From the NCBI RefSeq assembly GCF_003945235.1, contig NZ_RSDW01000001.1:2520001-2552000 (forward strand): DNA of 32,000 nucleotides. Reading direction: 5' to 3'. Position 1 is the first letter of the stretch. Every line of letters starts with the position of its first letter. Under the pieces are notes generated by a model. That model did no database searches. It was not told where the DNA came from and worked only from the letters and a program-made list of their open reading frames with translations. Made by a program: the position numbers and the translations under genes. Source of the stretch: Edaphobacter aggregans (GTDB lineage Bacteria > Acidobacteriota > Terriglobia > Terriglobales > Acidobacteriaceae). Shown one piece after another: positions 8,423-22,743 of this stretch.

Positions 8423-10231
8423 TCAACCCTGATCCATCCGCAAGCCCAGCCCCTGGTACACCACCTCCACATCCTCCAACTCCACCCGCCCAGCCTGCTC
8501 ATTCACAATCCTCCGGTGCCTCCGTCGCAACATCCCATGCACAATCGCGACGAACAACACCGCATACACCAGATGCCTCCCATTCTTCTCCATCCAACCT
8601 TCCAGGTTCACCGTGTACATAACCAGCAGCGGAAAATAGACCAGGTATGGAATCACCACAAGCGCCAGATTTCTCTGCCCCGCCGACTGCCACTTCGTAA
8701 AAGGCACAACCATAACCTTCCCAAAGAAAGCATCCGTCAGCAGCAGACTCAGTCCCACCGCGATCACAACCTGCACCGCCGTAACTCTCCATCCCCGCAA
8801 AGCCGCCGGCCCAATCGCCCGCGCGCCCGCAACTGCAGCCAAAGTAATAAGCGTGCTCCACAAAAACACCCACACCTTCGTCGCCACCAAATGATCCCGC
8901 TGAGGCCGCCCATGGATAATCCCAAACACCCAGCTCCCGCGCGCATCCACCGGAGACACCAGCGCCATACGCAATCCCGCAACAATCCAGAACGCCAACA
9001 TAGGAATCGCCGCGCGCAACCCATACTCCGTGACACCAAACCGGACATGCCCATGCCCAGGTGTAATCACAATTGCGCTGGCAATCATCAAAGTAATCCC
9101 GACGCCCCCATACATCGCCAGATACACACGATGCCGCTGCGTCCGCAAAAGGGTCTGATTGATAAAGTGATACACCGCTCGTCGCTGTGGTATTCGCAAC
9201 ACGACCGCATGCAGCAACCCACTAATCCATCTTGAAATCCATCTCTGCCGACGCGCCGCAGTGAAGCCTTCAATCAACTGCCGCGTCCGGCGTCTATAAG
9301 CCAGCGGATACGTCACAACCACCACAAGCATCGCCAGCAAAGTCGCAAAAAATCCCGTCCGCGACAACGCCGTAAACACCGGCAGTGTCGACGCTCCACC
9401 CAGCATCCGCTCATAGATCCCCAAGAACCAGAACGGCGGAAAATACCGGACCACCACGCTATCCGATTCCAACAGCGGCCGCAAAAACATCAACACCATC
9501 GGACACAAAATAAAAACCGTAAGCAGTACCATCATCGAAGCTCCCTGCAGAAGCGGCGAAAAGCTCCGCGACAACCGTTGCCCAACCACAAGGATCAACA
9601 CCCCCTGCAATCCTAGAAAAAACGCCGCGACAAACACTCCCGCCAACCCGACCGCCACAACGTGAGCAAGCAGATACCGCACAAGTCCGGGCATATCCGC
9701 CACAAACGGAAAGAACACCGCACCTAGCAGATTCATTCCCACCAAAAACATAGCCAGAAAGATCACCAACGCCGCGATCCTCGCCCAAAACAGCCTCCGG
9801 CCAGGAATCGGTAGCGTCGACAGTACAAACACATCCAGAAGTTCAGGAAACAGCAACTCCCACTCAAACACCGTCACCGCCCCCATCACCACAAACGAAT
9901 ACATCACATAGAAGTAGTGATGATTCACCTGCGACCAGAACGGCGGCTTTAAAGGACGAATCGGCGGCACTCCGTGATACACCGGATACAGAAACAGCGC
10001 AAAGAGCAGCTGCGGCACGGCAATCACAGCTGCTGCTAGAATCACCCGCTTCATCATCTCGCCTTCAGTCGACACCATGTCGTTGTTGAAGAAGCGATCC
10101 AGCAGATGCCGCACCAGCAGCTCGAACTGACTCCGCTTCGGCTGCACCACTGGTCCCATAGCCGCTTGTACCTCCAGCGATAACACCGCATGCTCCGGCT
10201 CATCAATCTGACGAATCGTCTCTTTAAGCAT
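8423..10231 (-). CDS. large polytopic membrane protein, putative permease partner of the upstream ABC ATPase
   Basis: 602 aa with many hydrophobic helices in two halves. The ATG 10229-10231 overlaps the ATPase stop by 8 nt (ATGCTTAA). No named family recognised. Confidence 0.7.
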   Translation of the reverse strand: MLKETIRQIDEPEHAVLSLEVQAAMGPVVQPKRSQFELLVRHLLDRFFNNDMVSTEGEMMKRVILAAAVIAVPQLLFALFLYPVYHGVPPIRPLKPPFWSQVNHHYFYVMYSFVVMGAVTVFEWELLFPELLDVFVLSTLPIPGRRLFWARIAALVIFLAMFLVGMNLLGAVFFPFVADMPGLVRYLLAHVVAVGLAGVFVAAFFLGLQGVLILVVGQRLSRSFSPLLQGASMMVLLTVFILCPMVLMFLRPLLESDSVVVRYFPPFWFLGIYERMLGGASTLPVFTALSRTGFFATLLAMLVVVVTYPLAYRRRTRQLIEGFTAARRQRWISRWISGLLHAVVLRIPQRRAVYHFINQTLLRTQRHRVYLAMYGGVGITLMIASAIVITPGHGHVRFGVTEYGLRAAIPMLAFWIVAGLRMALVSPVDARGSWVFGIIHGRPQRDHLVATKVWVFLWSTLITLAAVAGARAIGPAALRGWRVTAVQVVIAVGLSLLLTDAFFGKVMVVPFTKWQSAGQRNLALVVIPYLVYFPLLVMYTVNLEGWMEKNGRHLVYAVLFVAIVHGMLRRRHRRIVNEQAGRVELEDVEVVYQGLGLRMDQG

Positions 10232-13254: not shown

Positions 13255-13812
13255 ATGCGTAAAATTCTATCTGCTCTGGTCCTCACTCTCGGCCTCGCTG
13301 TAGCTCCCGTAGCTGCGCACGCCGATTCCTTGACCTACAACCTCATCCTTACCGCGACGACCCCCGGTTCTAACGTCAGCGGCGGTACCGGATCATTCAC
13401 CATCACCGGCGCGCCCGCTTCCTCGGGGAACTCCGACTTCAACACCCTCCTCGGTAATCTCACTGCTATGAGCTTCACCATCGGCGGCGACACCTTCAAT
13501 CTCTCTAACGCTGCTCTCAACTACGGGGACGCATTCTTCCAGAATGGCAACCTCCTCTCCGTCATCTACGACGGCGGCACCGTCAACAAGTCCGTAGACT
13601 TCTCGTTGGTAGCCGGCTCTCTCTTCTATACCTTCTCGGACGTCGACACTCTCATCAATGGTGTGCCGGAGTTTTCTCAGGGCACAATCAAGGTTGCGAG
13701 CATTACGGATCCCCCGTCCACCAGCCCCGTGCCCGAGCCCTCTGCTCTTCTGCTCTTCGGCACCGGAGCCCTCGGCCTCGCAGGCATCGTCTCTCGCAAG
13801 CTGACGGCCTAA
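13255..13812 (+). CDS. PEP-CTERM sorting-domain secreted protein
   Basis: N-terminal signal peptide MRKILSALVLTLGLAVAPVAAHA. The C-terminal VPEPSALLLFGTGALGLAGIVSRKL has the PEP motif, a TM helix and a basic tail. Confidence 0.85.
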   Translation: MRKILSALVLTLGLAVAPVAAHADSLTYNLILTATTPGSNVSGGTGSFTITGAPASSGNSDFNTLLGNLTAMSFTIGGDTFNLSNAALNYGDAFFQNGNLLSVIYDGGTVNKSVDFSLVAGSLFYTFSDVDTLINGVPEFSQGTIKVASITDPPSTSPVPEPSALLLFGTGALGLAGIVSRKLTA

Positions 13813-13830
13813 TTCAACGCAACATCTCAA

Positions 13831-13868
13831 GGCCCGCGCTGCTTCATAAACAGCGCGGGCCTTTTTTT
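13831..13868. terminator. rho-independent terminator after the PEP-CTERM gene
   Basis: 11-bp stem ggcccgcgctg (13831-13841) / cagcgcgggcc (13851-13861), a 9-nt loop, then a T7 run at 13862-13868. It sits between convergent genes. Confidence 0.88.
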
Positions 13869-13894
13869 GCGCTCTGCATCAAATCACGAACGTA

Positions 13895-15391
13895 CTACTG
13901 AACCACCACATCGAACGCGCCCGTCTCCACCGTCGATCCATGCTTCATCTGCACAAAGATCCTGTACCGCCCCGCCGAAGGAAATCCATAAGGAAACTCC
14001 ACCAAGTTTGATATCGGTGCAGCATGCATCGGCATATCCATCTGCATGCCCACCGGTGCCGCACTGCTCTCATCGCCATTCGCGAGCATCATCGCCGCCA
14101 TCGCCGCCGACCCCTGCGGATGTGTATGCGCAAACACCGTCCCATCGGTCTTCACAAACGCCGCATGTCCCGCCATTCCCAGATAAGGCTGCATATCCGC
14201 AGCAGGTTTGCCCGAAGCATCCAGCAGCCGGAACCGCAGCGCATAGGCCGTGTTCGCCGTCACAGTCTCGGGCTTATCCCACGCCATCACATACCCATCC
14301 GGCAGCGTATACGAACTCCCCAGCATCCCCTTGCTCAGCGGCTGCGGCGATCCCACCGCATCATCGGCAGCCAACGCCCCACCGGACATCCCCTCAGGCA
14401 CCGTCACACTAGCGACCAGCGTCTCGGGAAATCCCGTCGCGTGCACGACGTCGCCATACAGCTTGTACTCTCCCGCCGGCATCGCAGGCAGCACGATGCG
14501 AAAATCCCCCGCCCCAGCCAGCACCGGATGCAGATGAAACACCGCATCCATCTCCGGCTGCCGAATCGCATACAGGTGCATCAGGTGCCCATGATCTGGC
14601 AAAAAGTCATCATTCAAACGCCAACGTCTTTCCCTGAAGTCATCTTTTGGCTTATAGGCAGTCACCTTCAGATCAAGCTGGTTCCCCAGCAGCACCGGCT
14701 CGACACCAAGCGGTTGATAGATATCCGCCGAGTAGCTCGCCGCCTCGACATTCCACCACTTCGCCCCACCCCAAACCATCAGCCCCATCAGCACAAGGCT
14801 CCCCACCGTCGCAAAGACCGCCCGACGCCGCCTCTCAGCCGAAGCCACAGCCCCCGGCTGCAATCGAGCCTCTCGCACCGCCGCCGCCACAATCCCCGCC
14901 ATGCTGACCACTAGAAATAGCCCTAGGAACCCCAGCACGATGCCCATCCCGCGCTGCATCTTCAATGTGCTAAGCGGCATCGCCGGCACCGGCACCGACA
15001 CCACCTGCACCCCGCTTGCGCCCGATACCTCAAACCGTACCTCCCACGACCCCGCGGCCATCATCCACAAATTTCCCGTGAAAAAAGCGGGATCATTAGC
15101 AGATCGCACCATGGCATCCGGCGTAGGCGGATGCTTCGAAGCCTCTCCCGTCATCGGAAGCGGCGTAATTCGTATCCCATCCACCGCAGCCCCACTCGAC
15201 CGTACCTCAATCGTCGCCGCGCCAGGAATCACCGTAGGCGTCCGTACCGTCACATAAAGCCGGTAAGGTCCCGCATCCACCTGCTCAAATACATCCTTGC
15301 TTCCCACATGAGCCCAAGCACCACGCGGAGCAGCAAAGACAACAAGCAAAAGCAGCAAGCCTACCCAACCTCGAGAAAAAGAAGCCCTCAC
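13895..15391 (-). CDS. secreted/bitopic His- and Met-rich protein, putative periplasmic metal-binding protein
   Basis: The preferred start is GTG 15389-15391, overlapping the upstream TGA as GTGA with GGAG 9 nt upstream. This gives signal peptide (M)RASFSRGWVGLLLLLVVFAAPRGAWA|HVGSK. The ORF is open to 15436 and an ATG lies at 15412. Contains HGHLMHLYAI...FHLHP, MAGHAAFVK...FAHTHP and MQMDMPMH (14024-14047). Confidence 0.7.
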   Translation of the reverse strand: MRASFSRGWVGLLLLLVVFAAPRGAWAHVGSKDVFEQVDAGPYRLYVTVRTPTVIPGAATIEVRSSGAAVDGIRITPLPMTGEASKHPPTPDAMVRSANDPAFFTGNLWMMAAGSWEVRFEVSGASGVQVVSVPVPAMPLSTLKMQRGMGIVLGFLGLFLVVSMAGIVAAAVREARLQPGAVASAERRRRAVFATVGSLVLMGLMVWGGAKWWNVEAASYSADIYQPLGVEPVLLGNQLDLKVTAYKPKDDFRERRWRLNDDFLPDHGHLMHLYAIRQPEMDAVFHLHPVLAGAGDFRIVLPAMPAGEYKLYGDVVHATGFPETLVASVTVPEGMSGGALAADDAVGSPQPLSKGMLGSSYTLPDGYVMAWDKPETVTANTAYALRFRLLDASGKPAADMQPYLGMAGHAAFVKTDGTVFAHTHPQGSAAMAAMMLANGDESSAAPVGMQMDMPMHAAPISNLVEFPYGFPSAGRYRIFVQMKHGSTVETGAFDVVVQ

Positions 15392-16599
15392 CGTTGCACG
15401 CTCCGCATCCATCGGCCAAAAAGCAGCCCCACCCACGTCCCGATCGACGCATAAATCGCAGCCCGCAGCAAACCGAAATAAAGCGCAAACCCATAACTCG
15501 GCTTATAGAACTGCCTCAACCGATCGATCCCATCCGGCCGCGAGTTGTAATCGAAATACATCGTCCCAAAGAACCGGTTCTCCGAAGCCTTCGACATAAG
15601 AAACGAAGCAAACGGCCACTCCACCACCACCAGCACCGCAACAAAAGCAACCCCCGAAGCCAGCGCAATCTTCCAAGGCTTCCACTCCCTCGTCCGCTGC
15701 CACAGAAGATCCAGCGTCAACGCCGGCACCAGAATCAAAATCGGAAACTTCGCCGGAACCAGATGCGTGACCGGAAAGAACACCGGCCCCAGCTTTGGCT
15801 GCGCAGGAAACAGCGGCAGAATCAGAATCTCGCCGATCACGAAAATCATATAAACGGAAGCCGCAGCCGTAGCGGCCCACCGATACCGCGAAGCCTGCGA
15901 AAGCAGCGCCAGCAACAGCGGAAGCCCAATCGCCATCGCAATGTACGCGCTGACCGTGTGGAGGCTGACGTCCCACGTGTACTCGATCAGGAAGAACATC
16001 TGCCCACCCACCATCAAGCCGCCCAGGTACAAAAACAGCCGCTGTAGTGCCTTGAAGCTCCGCTCCCCCGCCTGCCCACCTTCAGCGGCCGCCCGATTCA
16101 TCGCCGCCAAAATCAAAAAAAGCACGCCCACCGCAACCGCGCGAATCCCAAGAATCAGCAGCGTATGGGGAGGACTCACAATCTTCACATCCAGCCCATA
16201 TGCGGCATGCCACCAGTTATCGAACGGAGCCGACGTCAACATCGCAATCCCGCCCCACGCCGCGATAAACGCTCCCAACGGCGCCCGGAACCCCAGCACA
16301 TTCACCGAGGCCGCCTTCATCCCCGCCGACCGCCCAAACGTCGTAGCAAAGATTAAATATCCGCAAATAACCGCAGCAATCACCCCACACGCATAGATCG
16401 CCATATGCGCCGGCGTCCAAAACGTATCCCGCCCAATCGACCGGTGCCATGAAACATCCCAAGCCCCGCCGATCGAAGCCGACGTCACCGCCAGCACACC
16501 CCACCACACGTACCAAGGAACGTCCGCATTCCCTCCAGCAGCATGCTCTTTCGTTAACACAATCGGCGGCTGACTCGCGGACCAGGCAGGACTAGCCAT
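15388..16599 (-). CDS. polytopic membrane protein of unknown family with a duplicated D-x-x-W-H ... H motif
   Basis: ATG 16597-16599 preceded by GGAGGAG. 403 aa with about 10 or more hydrophobic helices. WDVSWH-x12-H spans residues 47-65 and FDNWWH-x13-H spans residues 126-145. Confidence 0.75.
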   Translation of the reverse strand: MASPAWSASQPPIVLTKEHAAGGNADVPWYVWWGVLAVTSASIGGAWDVSWHRSIGRDTFWTPAHMAIYACGVIAAVICGYLIFATTFGRSAGMKAASVNVLGFRAPLGAFIAAWGGIAMLTSAPFDNWWHAAYGLDVKIVSPPHTLLILGIRAVAVGVLFLILAAMNRAAAEGGQAGERSFKALQRLFLYLGGLMVGGQMFFLIEYTWDVSLHTVSAYIAMAIGLPLLLALLSQASRYRWAATAAASVYMIFVIGEILILPLFPAQPKLGPVFFPVTHLVPAKFPILILVPALTLDLLWQRTREWKPWKIALASGVAFVAVLVVVEWPFASFLMSKASENRFFGTMYFDYNSRPDGIDRLRQFYKPSYGFALYFGLLRAAIYASIGTWVGLLFGRWMRSVQR

Positions 16600-16768
16600 A
16601 AATCTCCTCCATACTCCGGGATAATTGCTATGCTAACCGTCACATCGGGTCGAAACCAAGCCAATACGGCAAATCCGTCCAGTAAAATCACCTCGAATCC
16701 ACGCACCCAGCGGTTCTCCGTGTCATGATGGGGACACCGGCCATCGCCGATCCAGCGTCCAATCAATC

Positions 16769-20952: not shown

Positions 20953-21957
20953 ATGACGAAACCAGCATTCCTCTTCCCCGGCCAGGGCTCGCAGACCGTA
21001 GGCATGGGCCGCGACCTCTACGACAATCACCCCGCCGCCCGAGCCATCTTCGACGAGGCCGACGCCGCCCTCGGCTTCTCCCTCTCCAAGCTCATCTTCG
21101 AAGGCCCCGAAGAGACCCTCAAGCTCACCGAGCACACCCAGCCCGCCATCCTCACCGTCTCCGTAGCCGCCGCCCGAGTCTTGATGCCAGCACTCGCAGA
21201 GAAAGGCATCCAGCCCGCCTTCGCCGCCGGCCACTCCCTCGGCGAATACTCCGCCCACGTAGCCGCCGGAACCCTCACCTTCGCCGACGCCGTCCGCACC
21301 GTTCGCGCCCGAGGCCAATACATGCAGCAGGCCGTCCCCGCCGGAGAAGGAGCCATGGCCGCCATCCTCGGCCTCTCCGCCACCCTCATCGCCGAAATCT
21401 GCGATCAAGTCTCCGACCAACTCACCCCGCTCCCCACCATCCCCGAAGCCAAAACCTTCAACCCCAACCTCGCCGTCGTCTCGCCCGCCAACCTCAACTC
21501 ACCCGACCAGACCGTCATCTCAGGCGCCGTCGGAGCCGTCCATCTTGCCGCCGACCTCTGCAAGCAAGCCGGAGCCAAGCGCACCGTCATGCTCCAGGTC
21601 AGCGCCCCCTTCCACTGCGCCCTCATGCAGCCCGCGCAGGACGCCCTCGCCGCAGACCTCGCCTCCCTCACCTTCAATGACCCCGCCGTCCCCATCGCCG
21701 CCAACGTCGACGCCCTCCTCATCACCCGCGCCGCCGACGCTCGCGACTGCCTCATCCGCCAGGTCACCGGCTCCGTCCGCTGGGTCGAGTGCATCCAGCT
21801 CCTCATCGCCCAGGGCGCAACCCACTTCATCGAAGTAGGCCCCGGCAAAGTCCTCACCGGCCTCATGCGCCAAATCGACCGCACCCAACCCACCGCCAAC
21901 GTAGAAGACACCGCCTCCCTCGAAAAAACCCTCGCGTCATTTACTGCGACCTCTTAG
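20953..21957 (+). CDS. fabD: malonyl-CoA:ACP transacylase
   Basis: FLFPGQGSQ, active-site GHSLGEYSA, and VSAPFHC motifs. About 20 aa longer than typical because of an insertion around SDQLTPLPTIPEAKTFNPNLA. Confidence 0.93.
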   Translation: MTKPAFLFPGQGSQTVGMGRDLYDNHPAARAIFDEADAALGFSLSKLIFEGPEETLKLTEHTQPAILTVSVAAARVLMPALAEKGIQPAFAAGHSLGEYSAHVAAGTLTFADAVRTVRARGQYMQQAVPAGEGAMAAILGLSATLIAEICDQVSDQLTPLPTIPEAKTFNPNLAVVSPANLNSPDQTVISGAVGAVHLAADLCKQAGAKRTVMLQVSAPFHCALMQPAQDALAADLASLTFNDPAVPIAANVDALLITRAADARDCLIRQVTGSVRWVECIQLLIAQGATHFIEVGPGKVLTGLMRQIDRTQPTANVEDTASLEKTLASFTATS

Positions 21958-21969
21958 GCGCGCGCTTCG

Positions 21970-22743
21970 ATGAAACTTTCTGTGCTCGCCCTAATCTCTA
22001 TTGCCTTAGCTCTGCTCCGAAAATACGTTCCGGCTCCGCCGTCAAGATTTAAGACCTGGACTTACGATCAAAGGCAAGTTCCTGAGCCGCTGCCCACTGG
22101 CGTAATAGGTGTATTCATGTGGACAATTGGAATTTGTCTTGCCCTAACGTTCTTTGCCTTCAAAGCCGCCAATCATGCGTGGGCTGAAATCGATGGGCAG
22201 AACGTGCTTCATCTTTATCCCACAGCCATTCTCTGGTGCTTTTTCCCTTTTTTCGCAGCACTGACGGTACCTTGGCCTTTGACAGTTTGGCTTCTGCGCC
22301 GCACCGGTCGCACAGATGAAGCGGACTCTGTTATGGAGGATTCTGATCAGAAGGCACAATACAATACCTTTTTAGTAATGAAGTGGTTTGGCATCGGCTT
22401 GGTCATGCCCATCGCATTCTTTACTCTCTTGGCAATTCCGATGCATTTGTCCATTGGTGATCAGGAAGCGCGCCTCGGCCATTACGGCTCGTGGAATGAA
22501 GAGATCTTTCCGTTCAAAGAGGCCAGAAGGGCCACCATCATAGACGGAGTCCGCTATCGTGATGGTAGTTTTCATCAGCAGCGAGATCTTCTGATCGACT
22601 TCCAGGATGGTCGAAGACTCAGAGCAAATGAAGTAGGGGATGGCGGAACAAACGCAGACCAGAGAGCCATCGAATTGTTGCTGGCCAAAACTGGCCTTCA
22701 ACCCCAACATGCAATTACACCGGATGAAATACCTGGGCTCTAA
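21970..22743 (+). CDS. hypothetical membrane protein (about 4 TM helices + soluble C-terminal domain), compositionally foreign
   Basis: 257-aa ORF in a roughly 40-48% GC stretch where random long ORFs are unlikely. Uses AGA, AGG, ATA, TTA and TTG codons that are rare elsewhere in the window. No SD; starts 12 nt after the fabD stop. No family recognised. Confidence 0.65.
   Translation: MKLSVLALISIALALLRKYVPAPPSRFKTWTYDQRQVPEPLPTGVIGVFMWTIGICLALTFFAFKAANHAWAEIDGQNVLHLYPTAILWCFFPFFAALTVPWPLTVWLLRRTGRTDEADSVMEDSDQKAQYNTFLVMKWFGIGLVMPIAFFTLLAIPMHLSIGDQEARLGHYGSWNEEIFPFKEARRATIIDGVRYRDGSFHQQRDLLIDFQDGRRLRANEVGDGGTNADQRAIELLLAKTGLQPQHAITPDEIPGL

Follow-up and report, generated by a model that had tools for sequence, protein, structure and literature searches.

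The stretch of DNA analysed here (the window) comprises 32,000 nucleotides (nt) of Edaphobacter aggregans, a member of the Acidobacteriaceae (NCBI RefSeq assembly GCF_003945235.1, contig NZ_RSDW01000001.1, positions 2,520,001 to 2,552,000 of the forward strand). On its minus strand lie two adjoining genes that encode a polytopic membrane protein and a predicted periplasmic partner. According to the open reading frame (ORF) list, gene 1 (15388-16599, minus strand) specifies a membrane protein of 403 amino acids (aa), and gene 2 (13895-15391, minus strand) specifies a partner of 498 aa. The ATG of gene 1 at 16599 is preceded by a GGAGGAG Shine-Dalgarno sequence. The start of gene 2 is best placed at the GTG at 15391, since this forms a GTGA overlap with the upstream TGA and has a GGAG 9 nt upstream; the overlap of start and stop (15388-15391, minus strand) marks translational coupling.

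An initial annotation, made from the letters alone, had proposed both ORFs together with this start, overlap, and GGAG, all of which are borne out in the sequence. Its motif positions are exact as well, i.e., WDVSWH-x12-H (residues 47-65) and FDNWWH-x13-H (126-145) in the membrane protein, and MQMDMPMH, RRRR (187-190), and AWA followed by H (25-28) in the partner. It had also assigned neither protein to a named family. This stands for the partner, which has no Pfam, NCBIfam, or PDB family, but not for the membrane protein, which is very probably a remote homolog of PmoC/AmoC, the subunit C of the copper membrane monooxygenases (CuMMOs).

The membrane protein and its relation to PmoC and AmoC

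The part of the gene 1 protein that very probably shares ancestry with the metal-binding core of PmoC/AmoC comprises residues ~28-169 (16093-16518, minus strand) with four predicted transmembrane (TM) helices, as judged from phmmer, profile, and hhalign comparisons. Four independent searches reached PmoC/AmoC and no other family, namely, those of Pfam (AmoC PF04896, E=1.7e-3), of NCBIfam (TIGR03078, E=3.9e-4), and of the PDB with the single sequence and with a profile. When all 177,635 PDB sequences were searched with phmmer, the five best matches were all PmoC/AmoC, with residues 28-169 aligned to PmoC ~108-243 (e.g., 6cxh_C residues 108-243, E=4.5e-4), and every match with E≤0.05 belonged to these proteins. 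A profile was built from 39 full-length gene 1 relatives that are 30-53% identical to the window protein (alignment A3). Against the PDB it retrieved six sequences at E≤10, all of them AmoC/PmoC (best E=7.7e-6), and the E-value of the PmoC/AmoC match improves 100-fold with the more divergent profile. As a reference, six genuine subunit C genes, together with the accompanying A and B genes, were taken from annotated plasmids of Methylocystis, Nitrosomonas, Methylomagnum, Rhodococcus, and two mycobacteria. hhalign aligned A3 with the six genuine subunit C proteins at a probability of 85.6% (E=5.6e-6) over 109 columns spanning both ligand triads described below, and the reversed-sequence control gave 16.7, compared with 49.1 for the true alignment.

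Twelve columns are invariant in A3, and six of these are D48, H52, H65, D127, H131, and H145. The invariant residues of genuine subunit C include D129-x3-H133-x12-H146 and N200-x3-H204-x13-H218. In the alignment with genuine subunit C, D48/H52/H65 correspond to D129/H133/H146 and D127/H131/H145 to N200/H204/H218, residue for residue. The CuC and CuD sites of CuMMOs each contain two His and an Asp or Asn, are highly conserved, and are likely to constitute the active site (PMC13058606, a 2026 review). Triad 1, W-D48-V-S-W-H52-x12-H65 (16405-16461, minus strand), aligned to the PmoC/AmoC pattern QD(G/A)(S/T)WH..(I/V)(I/V)RDT.FTPSH, is the apparent counterpart of the CuC site (Asp and two His). 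Triad 2, F-D127-N-W-W-H131-x13-H145 (16165-16224, minus strand), aligned to PmoC NEWGH-x13-H, would be that of the CuD site; here the spacing and both His (H131, H145) agree with CuMMOs, whereas the first ligand is an invariant Asp (D127) in place of the CuMMO Asn. The agreement extends to polar signatures common to the gene 1 protein and PmoC/AmoC, namely, (S/T)WH...RDT.(F/W)TP.H and (N/D).W.H...(A/S)P.H. The duplicated WDVSWH/FDNWWH motif that had been singled out at the start is thus real and invariant, but its two copies are better read as counterparts of the CuC and CuD triads.

About 10 TM helices are predicted for the whole gene 1 protein from hydropathy and positive-inside loop counts, and an N-in/C-in topology would place both triads at the periplasmic membrane interface. 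Residues 170-403 (six predicted helices) have no counterpart in PmoC. Within this part, a predicted periplasmic loop, PLFPAxPxLGPV..VTH (residues 262-279, 15763-15816, minus strand), is highly conserved in A3, with P272 invariant. A fusion of subunits C and A was considered and rejected: hhalign placed residues 189-389 in a colinear alignment with almost the entire PmoA (P=6.5e-4), but the score of 34.0 compares with 33.6 for block-shuffled PmoA controls, and an unrelated TM-TM profile pair (A4 vs. A5) scores 29.4. On these scores, the resemblance of the C-terminal extension to PmoA lies within noise. GPCR (G-protein-coupled receptor)-like helices matched by Foldseek with the AlphaFold2 (AF2) model of this protein were discarded as meaningless, the model having a predicted local distance difference test (pLDDT) value of 47.

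The periplasmic partner

No family was matched by the gene 2 protein in Pfam, NCBIfam, or PDB sequences; a Pfam Aldolase_II match (E=1.7e-3, no passing stretch) and other marginal matches were set aside as noise. Its relatives number 4793. It is predicted to be a secreted, membrane-anchored, His-rich beta-sandwich protein. The AF2 model (pLDDT 73) contains a beta-sandwich at residues 34-138, helices at 143-175 and 185-224, and beta domains at 228-331 and 345-497, in agreement with the immunoglobulin (Ig)-like domain and the two-helix hairpin with an RRRR loop that had been expected from the sequence. The hairpin (residues 143-224, 14720-14965, minus strand; AF2 and hydropathy) is predicted to cross the membrane, with RRRR (residues 187-190, 14822-14833, minus strand) in a predicted cytoplasmic loop that holds six K+R, and all soluble domains of the partner are predicted to be periplasmic.

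The n, h, and c regions of a signal peptide ending in A-W-A can be read at residues 1-27 (15311-15391, minus strand). Cleavage at this site would leave His28 (15308-15310, minus strand) as the first mature residue and as a possible histidine-brace ligand. Where the alignment covers it, the dominant junction is A-x-A followed by H(V/I/L)G(S/N), and G, T, or S variants are rare. His28 occurs in 75/75 of the Acidobacteriaceae loci with gene 2 (the set of loci is described below), is invariant in the divergent alignment A4, and is missing in alignment A8 only from the non-homologous row of locus L098. The earlier suggestion of a His-first mature protein holds as a prediction, and His28 is found in distant homologs as well.

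The N-terminal beta-sandwich (residues 28-140, 14972-15310, minus strand) appears CrdA-like in both Foldseek and profile comparisons. Comparisons with CopC/PcoC have been made for CrdA of Helicobacter pylori, a periplasmic copper protein (PMC9182242). Foldseek matched the N-domain to CrdA (9ll2_A/9ll4_A) with probability 1.00, TMt 0.65-0.68, and a root-mean-square deviation of 3.6-4.1, and a profile match to the CrdA chain covers residues 60-123 (E=0.09). CrdA is the only specific structural match of the partner; its other whole-chain Foldseek matches are mostly generic Ig/fibronectin type III (FN3) arrays.

Each of the two following beta domains carries a His module. Module 1, in beta domain 2, reads D266-H267-G-H-L-M-H272 ... 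H286-L-H288-P (14525-14596, minus strand), and D266, H267, H272, H286, H288, and P289 are invariant down to 30% identity and in 75/75 loci. Module 2, in beta domain 3, reads H409 ... H422-T-H424-P (14117-14167, minus strand) and is invariant in A4 and A8. Eight partner His are therefore invariant to 30% identity (H28, H267, H272, H286, H288, H409, H422, and H424), and their layout is a His-first N-terminus followed by two H-x12/13-H-x-H-P modules. The initial annotation had described two repeats of an H-x-H...H-x-HP module. This holds for H267, H272, H286, H288, H409, H422, and H424, but not for H269, which is K in 12/75 and R in 1/75 loci, and the in-register alignment of one module with the other is weak (P=0.008, hhalign per domain).

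The Met-rich tract MQMDMPMH (14024-14047, minus strand), likened at first to Cu(I)-binding sequences, lies exactly where it had been placed, but it is not conserved outside the close family, and neither is H87. It sits in a low-confidence loop (pLDDT 25-39), varies in length and composition, and is absent in loci L045, L064, and L087. H317 is lost in 10/75 loci. The tract, H87, H269, and H317 are lineage-specific, and an essential role for the tract, H269, and H317 is unlikely.

Conservation and genomic context of the pair

The gene 1 protein has about 8000 close relatives, all unnamed, and 2137 clusters of the representative library (50% identity) match it with E≤1e-3. Gene 1 occurs in at least 585 species-level genomes, of which the best 80 were examined as genome loci, almost all of them from Acidobacteriaceae. 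The partner directly follows gene 1 in 75/80 loci (one exception is a truncated contig), H52, H65, D127, H131, and H145 are present in 80/80, and D48 in 79/80. Named relatives are also found in Bryobacteraceae, Thermoanaerobaculia, and Candidatus (Ca.) Binataceae, and the pair extends to at least one phylum besides the Acidobacteriota. At distant loci the partner is directly downstream in 8/9, including one Ca. Binataceae, mostly with a 4-nt or 1-nt overlap; L098 lacks it. The window neighbours recur in only 1-3 of 80 loci, and the two genes are therefore taken to be a functional unit. PmoC was not found in the phage collection.

Gene 1 without an adjoining partner was seen in L052, L060, L073, L076, and L098. 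In L060 it is followed by a gene for a 186-aa membrane protein, and in L098 the downstream gene is convergent; a divergent gene of 484 aa beside the L098 homolog was considered as partner and rejected (17% identity, no motifs). Gene 1 homologs that are 64-71% identical occur in metagenome-assembled genomes (MAGs) labelled Rhodanobacteraceae, Acetobacteraceae, Lichenicola, and Babeliales (L030, L047, L065, L073, and L076), contigs that are probably mis-binned acidobacterial DNA. Two Logan assemblies of the same low-GC organism (L081:2108-3650 and L082:2099-3700) carry different single frameshifts in the partner gene, and these are probably assembly errors because combining both rebuilds an intact protein.

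The surroundings of the pair differ between lineages. In one divergent lineage, on a 2.27-Mb ENA contig (L095:9001-15124), the pair is followed closely on the same strand by an Abhydrolase_3 esterase gene (3-nt gap), an overlapping gene for an FMO (flavin-containing monooxygenase)-like/Baeyer-Villiger-type flavin monooxygenase, DinB, and AhpC, an arrangement that may be a lineage-specific oxidative operon and a substrate hint. Three unrelated lineages have lipid or polyketide genes close to the pair, i.e., acpP-fabF-electron transfer flavoprotein (ETF) genes (P0295), a polyketide synthase (PKS) with a phosphopantetheinyl transferase (PPTase) (L087/L088), and FabD (window 20953-21957). This proximity may be due to chance, as other neighbours are not conserved.

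Within the window, gene 1 is bordered by a divergent intergenic region of 169 bp (16600-16768) with no recognisable operator or RNA element; searches upstream of the pair gave no Rfam element, no operator-like inverted repeat, and no significant promoter match. Downstream of gene 2 lies a terminator hairpin between convergent genes (core 13829-13863, outer stem 13816-13873; 16-bp stem, dG -39.1 kcal/mol, z -5.43). Read on the minus strand, it has A7 before and a weak U tract after it, and on the plus strand U7 follows. The consensus terminator scan did not call this gene 2 3' hairpin for the minus strand. The strong terminator that had been proposed to bound the unit is thus present as a stable hairpin, but because its U-run sits on the plus-strand side it is a bidirectional terminator common to gene 2 and the convergent PEP-CTERM gene (13255-13812, plus strand), and is not pair-specific.

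The other window neighbours are unrelated to the pair and encode an ABC/MacB-like transporter, a PEP-CTERM protein, DUF4230, a Ser/Thr kinase, CsgG, FabD, and housekeeping enzymes. Among the adjoining genes in the window there is none for a metal pump, oxidase, or regulator, as had been noted before for P-type ATPases, RND pumps, multicopper oxidases, and metal regulators. Two further ORFs in the window have no Pfam match at E≤1e-3, namely, one of 602 aa (8423-10231, minus strand), which adjoins an ABC ATPase and a MacB-like permease gene, and one of 257 aa (21970-22743, plus strand).

Proposed function and comparison with known systems

By analogy with CuMMOs, the two-gene operon is tentatively proposed to encode a two-subunit, periplasm-facing copper membrane complex that acts as an oxidative, copper-dependent enzyme, a reading whose probability we place a little short of even. 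Core homology, ligand conservation, synteny, translational coupling, and domain layout are directly supported by the data above; copper as the metal, the topology, the physical association of the subunits, and catalysis over transport are what we infer from them. An oxidative enzyme is favoured because the only homolog is a catalytic subunit and because the invariant residues cluster at one predicted face and not along a translocation path. In such a complex, the four-helix core of subunit 1 would hold Asp/His/His at the CuC and CuD positions, at the predicted periplasmic membrane interface, and its six further helices may fill the structural place of PmoA. Subunit 2 would be exported and cleaved, making His28 N-terminal, and its hairpin would anchor it beside subunit 1. 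It would then present the CrdA-like domain and two beta domains, each with a three-His H-x12/13-H-x-H-P site, above the membrane, and acquire, hold, or relay copper, or electrons. The PmoC-like site would bind one or two Cu ions and oxidise a membrane-soluble or periplasmic substrate, by analogy with the CuMMO active site, which is assigned to subunit C.

Rather doubtful is the more specific suggestion that the pair represents a deeply diverged branch of the CuMMO superfamily, i.e., a minimal two-gene enzyme with a CuC/CuD centre but without PmoA or a true PmoB, that would oxidise neither methane nor ammonia nor short alkanes but another substrate (e.g., a lipid of the membrane or a compound from plants or soil). 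The metal-handling system postulated in the initial annotation survives as a conserved, translationally coupled, unnamed metal-binding pair, with the likeliest role shifting to a CuMMO-related copper centre. No well-characterised family of non-metal function was matched by either protein, the key His and Asp residues are conserved, and synteny is strong (75/80).

Several observations weigh against the proposed copper enzyme. The gene 1 protein scores below the curated family cut-offs (Pfam-A, 2025 copy; NCBIfam, 2026) for Pfam AmoC PF04896 (E=1.7e-3, 18.2 bits; cut-off 26.7), NCBIfam TIGR03078 (E=3.9e-4, score 20; cut-off 280.6), and NF041641 (16.1; cut-off 319). Only 5/39 divergent gene 1 relatives reach E≤0.01 against the subunit C families, and the PmoC match spans only ~135 of the 403 residues. 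With these sub-cut-off scores, no PmoC N-terminal ~100 residues, ~235 extra residues, and Asp for the CuD Asn, the gene 1 protein stands, on sequence criteria, outside the curated subunit C family. No PmoA- or PmoB-like gene was found in the window or in ~90 related loci. The pair is not linked to any gene for a reductase, electron carrier, copper chaperone, or regulator, nor is there a substrate clue. The AF2 model of the gene 1 protein, built on a 43-sequence alignment of 75-96% identity, provides no site geometry or subunit contact at its pLDDT of 47. The partner was rejected as a PmoB homolog (hhalign A4 vs. A7, probability 0.6%; best per-domain P=0.024). As to copper itself, Zn, Fe, or Ni can likewise be bound by Asp/His sites, and Zn has been placed in models of the PmoC site itself (PMC13058606).

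Among the alternatives, copper acquisition or trafficking in the manner of CopC-CopD or YcnI-YcnJ, in which the partner would capture Cu by its N-terminal His and three-His sites and the membrane protein would import it or metallate envelope cuproenzymes, survives best, although we regard it as unlikely. The N-domain matches the copper resistance protein CrdA, for which CopC/PcoC have served as a comparison (PMC9182242), and the first mature residue is His as in CopC-type Cu(II) sites, but no Pfam CopC or CopD match is seen even at E≤1. Met-rich loops occur in many members, yet the Met tract is not conserved. A periplasmic binder next to a polytopic partner without redox partner genes would suit a transport system; however, the invariant membrane ligands lie at one predicted face with no conserved His, Met, or Cys along the helices as a translocation path, and the only detectable homolog is a catalytic subunit. 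Finally, the broad, constitutive distribution resembles housekeeping homeostasis, but no copper regulator or other copper genes are linked.

Distinctly unlikely is a non-redox role with another metal (Zn, Fe, Ni, or Mn), e.g., as a hydrolase, a lipid/envelope-modifying enzyme, or a sensor that has only an ancestral helix-bundle scaffold in common with PmoC. Asp/His/His triads are generic ligand sets for divalent metals and the second triad has Asp where CuMMOs have Asn, but the triad 1 signature (S/T)WH...RDT.(F/W)TP.H agrees well beyond the ligands. Copper-linked neighbours are lacking, yet the N-terminal His, HxHP, and Met-rich loops are typical of periplasmic copper proteins, and the proximity of lipid-related genes in three unrelated lineages is not conserved. 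A chance resemblance to PmoC of an unrelated family, through hydrophobic helices and coincidental His spacing, is very improbable: although the single-sequence scores are all sub-threshold, TM-TM profile comparisons give spurious scores near 30 (A4 vs. A5, 29.4), and the hhalign probability is 85.6% and not >95%, all PDB matches with E≤0.05 (177,635 sequences) are PmoC/AmoC with a 100-fold better E-value for the divergent profile, both triads align with identical x3/x12 and x3/x13 spacing, the polar residues RDT and TP are in both, and the reversed control stays at 16.7 vs. 49.1.

Neither protein reaches a curated Pfam-A/NCBIfam cut-off, while the core may already be recorded in structure-based resources (Gene3D, SUPERFAMILY, AFDB clusters). 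The literature searched contained no description of the pair or family; a pmoC mention in a peatland Acidobacteria paper was discarded as it is confined to a table legend. Source annotations of homologs read 'hypothetical' or give the partner as a TRAP (tripartite ATP-independent periplasmic) small permease. Eight partner homologs (P0128, P0153, P0158, P0182, P0207, P0208, P0212, and P0235) bear the JGI/UniRef name 'TRAP-type C4-dicarboxylate transport system permease small subunit', apparently a misannotation caused by the two-helix hairpin. A small number of gene 1 homologs (P0012, P0031) carry a precomputed AmoC Pfam tag and could be misread as nitrifier or methanotroph markers; such sporadic AmoC Pfam matches in acidobacterial genomes are not evidence of methane or ammonia oxidation.

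In terms of sequence relationship, gene 1 appears to be a remote branch of the PmoC superfamily that differs in architecture and has a new partner. It is a long-standing question which site of subunit C forms the CuMMO active site (CuC, CuD, or both) and by what chemistry it works, and this is hard to study because particulate methane monooxygenase (pMMO) and ammonia monooxygenase (AMO) lose activity outside native membranes and their hosts are difficult to manipulate (PMC13058606). A distant relative with both triads in a simpler two-gene setting would offer an independent evolutionary test of which residues are essential, and the pair is a potentially tractable model, since it occurs in the cultivated heterotrophs Edaphobacter, Granulicella, Terriglobus, Tunturiibacter, Bryocella, and Occallatibacter. 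It would also point to a new copper-dependent activity in one of the most abundant soil phyla. If the pair were a CuMMO branch, that branch would apparently be widespread in Acidobacteriaceae, with at least 585 species genomes, and would extend to other soil lineages.

Compared with PmoC/AmoC (PF04896, TIGR03078; PDB 7S4H, 6CXH, 9CL6, 9LEG, and 9PXF), the gene 1 protein has a homologous four-helix core, D-x3-H-x12-H and (N/D)-x3-H-x13-H patterns aligned with the CuC and CuD ligands, and both signatures, and in either family no residues are conserved more strongly than the ligands. In contrast, it is without the N-terminal ~100 residues, has ~235 extra ones, and is not encoded in an xmoCAB operon, and the pair occurs in heterotrophic Acidobacteriota and Ca. 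Binataceae, not in methanotrophs, nitrifiers, or alkane oxidisers. CopC/PcoC-CopD/PcoD and YcnI-YcnJ likewise combine a His-first periplasmic beta-sandwich copper domain with a His-bearing polytopic membrane protein, but the partner described here is membrane-anchored with three domains, and its membrane protein is PmoC-like, not CopD-like. No CopC or YcnI Pfam match to the partner was found at E≤1, and no CopD (PF05425) match at E≤1 to the gene 1 protein, nor any among its 39 relatives. Of the canonical CopC His1/Asp/His Cu(II) ligands, His1 is conserved, while distant homologs lack H87, the second His of the N-domain. H. pylori CrdA itself has no His (PMC9182242), unlike the partner.

The likeness of the partner to PmoB, raised in the initial annotation, holds for architecture and HxHP without detectable homology; PmoB is absent from its top 50 Foldseek matches, and there is no PDB sequence match. 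The CuB ligands of PmoB are His33/137/139 (PMC8262859), an N-terminal His and an HxH in the same domain, whereas the N-domain of the partner has no conserved HxH, and HxHP follows the hairpin, in domains 2 and 3, of a protein with three beta domains instead of two. Like PmoB/AmoB, the partner has a signal peptide, a His-first beta-sandwich, two TM helices, and further periplasmic beta-sandwich structure (PmoB layout: PMC8262859), contains HxHP ((Y/W)H(I/L/V)HP in PmoB, FHLHP and AHTHP in the partner), and is encoded beside a C-like gene. By analogy, it would work like a periplasmic copper module of the PmoB or CopC type while being a member of neither family.

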